DNA of 64,000 nt, taken from positions 1-64,000 of IMG/VR virus record IMGVR_UViG_3300009506_000009; one strand, given 5' to 3'. The notes beneath the pieces were generated by a model that was given only the letters and a program-made list of their open reading frames with translations, ran no database searches and was not told where the DNA came from. The stretch's first letter is position 1. Every line of letters starts with the position of its first letter. The position numbers and the translations under genes were made by a program. This document shows, one piece after another, positions 26,506 through 26,580 of the stretch. The stretch is from a virus.

Positions 26506-26580
26506 GCCAGTGTACCTGTGCGGTCTTCGAAACCGTAAGCAGTAACGGAGGAAATGCAGGTTCGAATCCTGTCGCTGGCT
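26506..26580 (+). tRNA. Non-canonical tRNA-Arg(TCG) with no conventional D-arm
   Basis: Acceptor GCCAGTG/CGCTGGC, anticodon arm GCGGT-CTTCGAA-ACCGT, intact T-arm. Confidence 0.75.

Follow-up and report, generated by a model that had tools for sequence, protein, structure and literature searches.

The gene at positions 26506-26580 (+ strand, as are all features of this genome given below) of IMG/VR virus record IMGVR_UViG_3300009506_000009, of which positions 1 to 64,000 were analysed (a stretch of 64,000 nucleotides, hereafter the window), is likely, as judged from its sequence, to encode a functional phage tRNA-Arg for CGA codons, with a core wired unlike that of the cloverleaf, a fold that to our knowledge is treated as universal outside organelles. 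No D-arm hairpin is found between positions 9 and 26; a three-base-pair helix (helix H) encloses the anticodon arm, and a D-loop-like segment lies on its 3' side. The same layout recurs in at least 123 distinct members from IMG/VR phage contigs and cultured phages, and the existence of such a large and mostly unannotated phage family suggests that bacterial translation can make use of a non-cloverleaf tRNA.

The gene comprises 75 nucleotides, including the discriminator U, and does not encode CCA. The 5' strand of the acceptor stem (26506-26512) pairs with 26573-26579 through seven base pairs, one of them G-U, and is followed at 26513-26515 by the equivalents of U8 and A9 (UA, 26513-26514) and a one-nucleotide linker (C26515), and then by the 5' strand of helix H (CUG, 26516-26518). 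A position-26-like U (26519) opens the segment that carries the anticodon arm (26519-26536), in which 26520-26524 and 26532-26536 form the stem and the loop, CUUCGAA (26525-26531), holds the anticodon UCG (26527-26529) together with U33 and A37. The linker AAG (26537-26539), the 3' side of an internal loop between the anticodon stem and helix H that ranges from 3 to 12 nucleotides across the family, leads to the 3' strand of helix H (CAG, 26540-26542), both strands being assigned on the basis of covariation. The D-loop-like UAACGGA (26543-26549) contains the counterparts of A14 (26544), A15 (26545), G18 and G19 (26547-26548) and A20 (26549), and is joined to the T stem by the connector GGAAAU (26550-26555), which ends in a nearly invariant A (26554) and a position-48-like U (26555), the partner of A26545. 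A canonical T arm (26556-26572), with a stem of five base pairs and the loop UUCGAAU, and the 3' segment 26573-26580, made up of the acceptor strand (26573-26579) and the discriminator U26580, complete the molecule. The acceptor and anticodon stems are separated by 7 nucleotides only, and UA lies 5 nucleotides from the anticodon stem. The acceptor stem, the anticodon arm (with U33 and a purine at 37) and the T arm of the cloverleaf are thus all present, and all three stems covary, the acceptor pairs doing so across the family; U8, A14, R15-Y48 and G18 G19, the core signature, are likewise all found, in an altered order along the chain.

The proposal that the D-loop had been relocated 3' of the anticodon arm came from a sequence-only reading of this DNA, whose parse of 26506-26580 agrees with the sequence base for base. 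The sister gene that it had noted at 24004, with a compensatory CGG/CCG helix and UAAAGGA, is also borne out: a rewired tRNA-Arg(UCU) at 24004-24080, about 60% identical to the first, has its anticodon at 24025-24027, the strands of helix H at 24014-24016 (CGG) and 24039-24041 (CCG), the D-loop-like UAAAGGA at 24042-24048 and a G at the discriminator position 73.

The family was delineated with two pattern scans of IMG/VR, the first keyed to the D-loop-like motif plus the T arm and the second only to a UCU anticodon loop plus the T arm, and therefore blind to both helix H and the D-loop-like motif. Both scans used only the matches listed, so that all family counts are lower bounds. Candidates were scored with R1, a covariance model of the rewired architecture built in this analysis, and the family was defined by UA, one or two nucleotides, a three-base-pair helix enclosing the anticodon arm, U-A-R-(N1-2)-G-G-N, a connector ending in A-Y and a canonical T arm. 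Both genes conform to this definition, with 75.4 bits for tRNA-Arg(UCG) and 75.7 bits for its sister, and the canonical tRNAs of this genome reach at most 30.7 bits. In phage loci, members score 41-91 bits (44-91 for the 123 kept) and sequences outside the family at most 37.6 bits. The scores of the two genes lie far above what chance would give. Class II tRNA-Leu genes of bacteria (L301, L329, L338 and L340) match the first pattern and obtain 42-44 bits with R1; these were rejected as false positives, and a short 5' connector is therefore also required. The family is restricted to phages: the first pattern placed members in 63 of 118 phage loci (among the matches listed) versus one of 120 representative prokaryote-genome loci, the latter being a 4-kb contig of a metagenome bin. 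The cultured phages with members infect Escherichia, Klebsiella, Pseudomonas, Streptomyces and Mycobacterium. Unannotated relatives with Arg anticodons were found by blastn in Pseudomonas phages PAK_P2 and phiPsa397 and in Mycobacterium phage Cosmo, a single 78-nucleotide query retrieved 158 GenBank records of cultured phages (Escherichia 74, Klebsiella 37, Streptomyces 24 and others), and R1 confirmed the gene in E. coli phages Antha and PBECO4, Klebsiella phage Sugarland and Streptomyces phage Yaboi. Separately, four tRNA-like sequences with Arg anticodon loops, L149:380-448 (-), L149:46-117 (-), L141:5981-6054 (+) and L161:6591-6653 (-), score about 28-37 bits; their 5' connector is short, the GG motif is missing and a small hairpin precedes the T arm, and they may represent a different D-armless design or debris.

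Helix H covaries as strongly as the classical stems. Its pairing reaches 99.4% in a MAFFT alignment of the first 52 members, where the two variable pairs of the helix show 16 and 19 double changes. The second pair occurs as G-C (36), A-U (8), C-G (6) or U-A (2) and the third as G-C (31), C-G (13) or one of four other types; each variable position accordingly shows four to six pair types. The first pair ended in G by design of the first pattern, and it also varies, among A-U, U-A and G-C, in the second sample. Shifting the partner strand by one to three columns lowers the overall pairing in the 52 members from 98.9% to 38-50%. RNAalifold predicts the helix unaided from the MAFFT alignment, and in a ranking of all column pairs by mutual information in 122 members its pairs come 3rd, 12th and 13th, among those of the acceptor, anticodon and T stems. 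The UA preceding it is invariant in all 52 sequences of the first alignment, despite being absent from the search pattern. The CUG/CAG helix, on whose covariation across homologues the sequence-only reading had staked its proposal, therefore withstands that test, and it also appears in the minimum-free-energy fold of the tRNA-Arg(UCG) sequence on its own.

The same substitutions speak against a different fold, in which the 3' strand of helix H and the YGG that lies 3' of it would make up a small hairpin in the variable arm, CCG-UAA-YGG. Such a hairpin is feasible in the commonest variant, where CCG is followed by YGG, but when the 3' strand reads CAG, CUG, GUG, GAG, GGG or AUG it is the 5' strand that changes along with it while GG stays fixed, and the CAG of the gene studied here is unable to pair with CGG. 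This fold is disfavoured by the covariation of the two strands, and we regard it as extremely improbable. The idea of a decayed or rearranged tRNA pseudogene, which might be suggested by the rejection of the gene by standard tRNA finders, deserves practically no credence, being already refuted by the homologues, which come from phages with hosts in at least five genera and show compensatory changes in four helices and conserved loops.

The segment 3' of the anticodon arm also resembles a D-loop in its behaviour. The purine following its U-A and the base directly 5' of the T stem are A-U in 114 members, G-C in 7 and another combination in 3, and the switches to G-C are spread over at least five lineages, each with A-U sequences as its nearest relatives. 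The covariation does not extend into a helix at the bases flanking the pair, and such a pattern classically marks the Levitt pair 15-48. An A immediately before position 48 is present in 121 of the 123 members and could, by virtue of its adjacency to the 15-48 pair, stand in for A21 on the U8-A14 layer. In a subgroup of 23 members, one extra base after UA and a longer connector accompany an additional two-base-pair helix (P2) between the two bases after UA and two bases after A20. This helix (GC/GC, GU/AC or AC/GU) is found in 21 of the 23, exceeding all of 2000 shuffles, and with it the D-loop-like segment becomes a bulge in a composite helix of five base pairs, an extension of the anticodon stem. 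In the short-linker subgroup, a search for a counterpart of P2 with a single base pair showed no consistent pairing.

These observations bear on whether the molecule has an elbow at all. A flexible D-armless tRNA of the mitochondrial kind would have helix H merely extending the anticodon stem, UAAYGGA as an unstructured connector that carries the determinant for arginyl-tRNA synthetase (ArgRS), and no elbow; the missing D hairpin and the extended anticodon stem do recall what has been proposed for mitochondrial tRNA-Ser (PMC7609411), and the near invariance of GG and of the T loop puts the elbow contacts beyond a covariation test. The mitochondrial forms, however, are less rigid than the canonical L, and their T arm is shortened (PMC7609411), whereas GG and a fully canonical T loop are retained in all but two members of the phage family, even where the search pattern did not impose them; the covariation of 15 with 48 points to an ordered core, and the conserved A before position 48 also speaks against a loose connector. 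We therefore consider a D-armless molecule of this kind unlikely. In the rewired tRNA with an ordered core, which is the reading favoured here, the contacts U8-A14, R15-Y48 and G18 G19 with the T loop would be expected to form physically. As a separate observation, in the member with anticodon CCU at L208:944-1017 (-) GG is replaced by AG and the T loop reads UGCAAAU rather than UUCGAAU; this may be a paired change at the elbow, seen in this single case.

The base that follows GG is coupled to the anticodon. All 117 members that carry an Arg anticodon (UCU 91, UCG 12, CCU 7, ACG 6 and GCG 1) have A there, and the rule also applies to the 55 members whose loci came from the second scan, in which this base formed no part of the pattern. 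In the six members with an Ile-type anticodon, five UAU and one CAU, located at L149:2134-2212 (-), L192:2050-2130 (-), L101:1057-1133 (-), L222:518-599 (-), L043:8810-8891 (-) and L160:4321-4397 (+), it is U (5) or C (1), and all six have discriminator A; their existence implies that the scaffold is not limited to Arg. In bacteria, A20 is the main determinant for ArgRS, U20 and A73 belong to the identity set of IleRS, and the Arg set further includes C35, U or G at 36 and a discriminator A or G at 73, with U73 also listed (PMC9976931, Table 1). The relation between anticodon and the base after GG matches, at the level of sequence, these synthetase identity rules for position 20. The tRNA-Arg(UCG) gene itself carries the Arg set, with the A20-like base at 26549, C35 and G36 supplied by the anticodon UCG, and U73; its sister has G73. 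The interpretation of UAACGGA as a D-loop, put forward from the sequence alone, is thus backed both by the 15-48 covariation and by the coupling of A20 to the anticodon. Across the family the discriminator is A in 51 members, G in 45 and U in 25, U33 is found in 120 of 123 and A37 in all 123, and CCA is encoded by about half of the first 52 members. A departure at U33 is seen in the Cosmo member (L001:1494-1566), in which the anticodon loop CCCCUAC, with anticodon CCU, has C in its place.

The anticodons also complement what the phage otherwise encodes. The window belongs to a 98.9-kb phage contig in which the only Arg genes called by ARAGORN are Arg(CCU) and Arg(GCG), and in which AGA, CGA and CGG are used at 7.5, 8.4 and 5.3 per 1000 codons, respectively; the two rewired genes fill exactly the AGA, CGA and CGG gaps of this canonical Arg set, CGG probably being read, like CGA, by the rewired tRNA-Arg(UCG). 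The earlier claim that the gene is the only decoder with a TCG anticodon holds for this contig, with the qualification that the contig is only about 68% complete. Anticodons differ among the copies in each of the 16 phage loci that have two or three, 5 of the 68 loci with a rewired UCU gene also have a canonical Arg(UCU) gene as against 15 of 53 control loci, and the median distance from a member to a canonical tRNA gene is 142 nucleotides.

Such complementarity has to be set against the idea of a tRNA mimic that does not decode, acting as a decoy for host anticodon nucleases or other tRNA-binding defences, or as an ArgRS-binding regulator. The restriction of the family to phages and its unusual structure would suit a mimic, as would the sequence at L077:1996-2058 (-), which keeps the acceptor stem, UAAAGGA and the T arm and has a 6-base-pair hairpin with a three-nucleotide loop, devoid of an anticodon, in place of the anticodon arm. 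On the other hand, a mimic would not be expected to have anticodons that complement the canonical set of the phage and are never shared by copies in one phage, nor such standard anticodon loops, and the acceptor stem, the discriminator and the frequently encoded CCA fit a chargeable tRNA; we hold a non-decoding role to be very unlikely.

Several observations weigh against a decoding tRNA with a rebuilt core, which is nevertheless the interpretation that we prefer. Helix H has three base pairs only and is recovered by single-sequence folding in 21 of 121 members. About 17% of members have C-A or G-G at the pair adjoining the anticodon stem, and in one subgroup the register of the helix is shifted by one base. 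Apart from 15-48, the bases of the tertiary contacts are invariant, which puts these contacts beyond a covariation test. Finally, given the incompleteness of the contig, other Arg tRNA genes could sit in its missing part.

In the structure that we propose for the rewired tRNA, the chain would run from U8-A9 straight down the three base pairs of helix H into the anticodon stem and, after the anticodon arm, would climb back along the other strand of H into the D-loop-like U-A14-R15-Y-G18-G19-A20, a short connector ending in A-Y48 and the T stem. Helix H would stack on the anticodon stem at the usual site of the D stem, and the relocated loop would make the core contacts (U8-A14, R15-Y48, and G18 and G19 with the T loop) and present A20 to ArgRS. 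The acceptor/T domain, which RNase P, the CCA-adding enzyme and EF-Tu recognise, would be left unchanged. The strand descending from A9 along H would have the polarity of nucleotides 22-25 of a normal tRNA, and the strand ascending from the anticodon stem that of nucleotides 10-13, entering the D-loop-like segment as in a normal tRNA; with polarities so matched, both the stack of D stem on anticodon stem and a loop reaching the elbow could be rebuilt. Three chain connections would be altered, namely 9 to 22/23, 43 to 10/11 and 20 to 47/48. In the structure of yeast tRNA-Phe, A9 contacts the 12-23 pair, 44-45 follow 10-25/26, and 21 is next to 46-48; since the rejoined positions are adjacent in that structure, short linkers look sufficient. 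We infer that the molecule would adopt an L-shape, be charged by the host ArgRS and decode on the ribosome.

Compared with a canonical class I tRNA-Arg (Rfam RF00005), such as the tRNA-Arg(CCU) at 26638-26712 of the window, the rewired form shares the seven-base-pair acceptor stem, U8-A9, an anticodon arm of five base pairs and seven loop nucleotides, the UUCGAAU T arm, the A-R-Y-G-G-A D-loop motif with A20, the covariation of R15 with Y48 and the Arg anticodons. It differs in lacking a D hairpin between position 9 and the anticodon arm, in having one D-stem-like strand and the whole D-loop 3' of the anticodon arm, which is nested inside the helix, and in that the strand leaving the acceptor stem runs toward the anticodon, opposite to nucleotides 10-13. 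As the D hairpin is the defining feature of the cloverleaf, the gene is not a canonical RF00005 member, even though it is otherwise tRNA-like in the features tested. The metazoan mitochondrial D-armless tRNAs, for example tRNA-Ser(AGY/UCU), share the absence of the D hairpin and a short connector between acceptor and anticodon, and combine these with a shortened T arm, a shape less rigid than the canonical L and an adapted organellar machinery (PMC7609411). The phage family, in contrast, keeps GG, the T loop, the 15-48 pair and A20 and must use ordinary bacterial machinery, and the gene described here has a full T arm in place of a reduced one and, far from an organellar setting, is encoded by a phage beside terminase and endolysin genes.

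A departure from the cloverleaf order of segments is also seen in the permuted tRNA genes of Cyanidioschyzon merolae, in which processing removes the permutation and the mature tRNA is canonical (PMC3978253). For the phage gene, readings as an intron-containing, permuted or split gene were rejected; no excision or ligation can restore a D hairpin, and the mature phage RNA itself must therefore have the new topology. The allo-tRNAs and tRNA-Sec, with 8/4, 9/3 or 9/4 acceptor/T lengths, are likewise natural non-canonical tRNAs mined from metagenomes, some of them from phages, but in these the stem lengths are altered and the four arms keep their usual order (PMC5389517; PMC7609411). No phage tRNA with the rewired layout was found in the literature covered, which included the reviews PMC7609411 and PMC9976931 and left subscription journals outside.

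The unusual layout is largely invisible to standard tRNA finders, as the sequence-only reading had anticipated. ARAGORN missed 133 of the 135 rewired members in phage loci and called neither rewired gene when run on the window, and both were also missed by RF00005 with default filters. With permissive filters RF00005 gives 35.7 bits for tRNA-Arg(UCG) and 28.8 bits for its sister, through alignments in which the D arm is deleted and 16-18 nucleotides are inserted in the variable region; for the former, the cmscan alignment deletes 15 model positions and inserts 16 nucleotides. In GenBank records of cultured phages the gene is unannotated or appears as 'tRNA-OTHER' or 'tRNA-Val(aac)', and in that of Mildred21 possibly as tRNA-Phe. 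Phage tRNA inventories, and the codon-usage arguments built on them, would consequently lack decoders of AGA, CGA and some AUA in a systematic manner.

Should the rewired tRNA prove to be charged and to work on bacterial ribosomes, a tRNA can dispense with a fixed sequence of arms, and what would matter is the spatial arrangement of the acceptor/T domain, a helix stacked above the anticodon stem, the elbow and position 20. The presence of members in easily handled E. coli and Klebsiella phages makes the question directly testable. It is a tentative possibility, with the balance against it, that the rewiring is adaptive, the surfaces for ArgRS or IleRS, EF-Tu, RNase P and the ribosome being kept and the D hairpin, as a target of host defence or of phage host-shutoff enzymes (tRNA nucleases and modification enzymes), being removed. 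Were this so, the family would represent a nuclease-proof non-cloverleaf scaffold for decoders of rare Arg (AGA, AGG and CGA) and Ile (AUA) codons, which could serve as a natural template for orthogonal tRNAs. The resistance to host tRNases that the sequence-only reading had suggested is likewise speculative.

The rewired genes lie in a tRNA-rich phage genome. The contig encodes a terminase large subunit, a GH25 endolysin, an HNH endonuclease and a ribonucleotide reductase, and ARAGORN finds in it 36 canonical tRNA genes and a transfer-messenger RNA (tmRNA) gene. A tRNA-Thr gene (26428-26501) precedes tRNA-Arg(UCG) by 4 nucleotides, and a putative sigma-70-like promoter at 26148-26176, with 11 of 12 consensus matches and an extended -10 element and recognised by consensus match only, lies upstream of both. 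Just 3' of the sister gene, a hairpin followed by a T run (24090-24109) resembles an intrinsic terminator. Contigs from four sediment metagenomes, which cover 23950-26750 in a fragmentary manner, show no variants within either rewired gene. No RNA data set was listed among the sequencing runs looked up for 26300-26800. HNH endonuclease genes are located directly downstream of the rewired tRNA in PAK_P2 (L002:1589-1954) and Sugarland (L358:3085-3594).

Other RNA features were noted in the window. The tmRNA gene (31785-32070) begins 3 nucleotides after a tRNA-Tyr gene, and the tag peptide predicted by ARAGORN ends in AVAA. Four matches to tRNA models are not accompanied by an ARAGORN call: a 119-nucleotide Rfam tRNA match at 26978-27096 (48 bits) with an insertion of about 45 nucleotides, a 66-nucleotide tRNA-like match at 32697-32762 (37.4 bits) obtained with permissive filters only, and sub-threshold matches to the tRNA model at 27870-27937 (28.2 bits) and to the tRNA-Sec model at 34073-34155 (29.3 bits). 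Within the tRNA array, 35140-35346 gives a partial match to bacterial RNase P RNA class A that spans the ends of the model (42.9 bits, E-value 1.8e-10).
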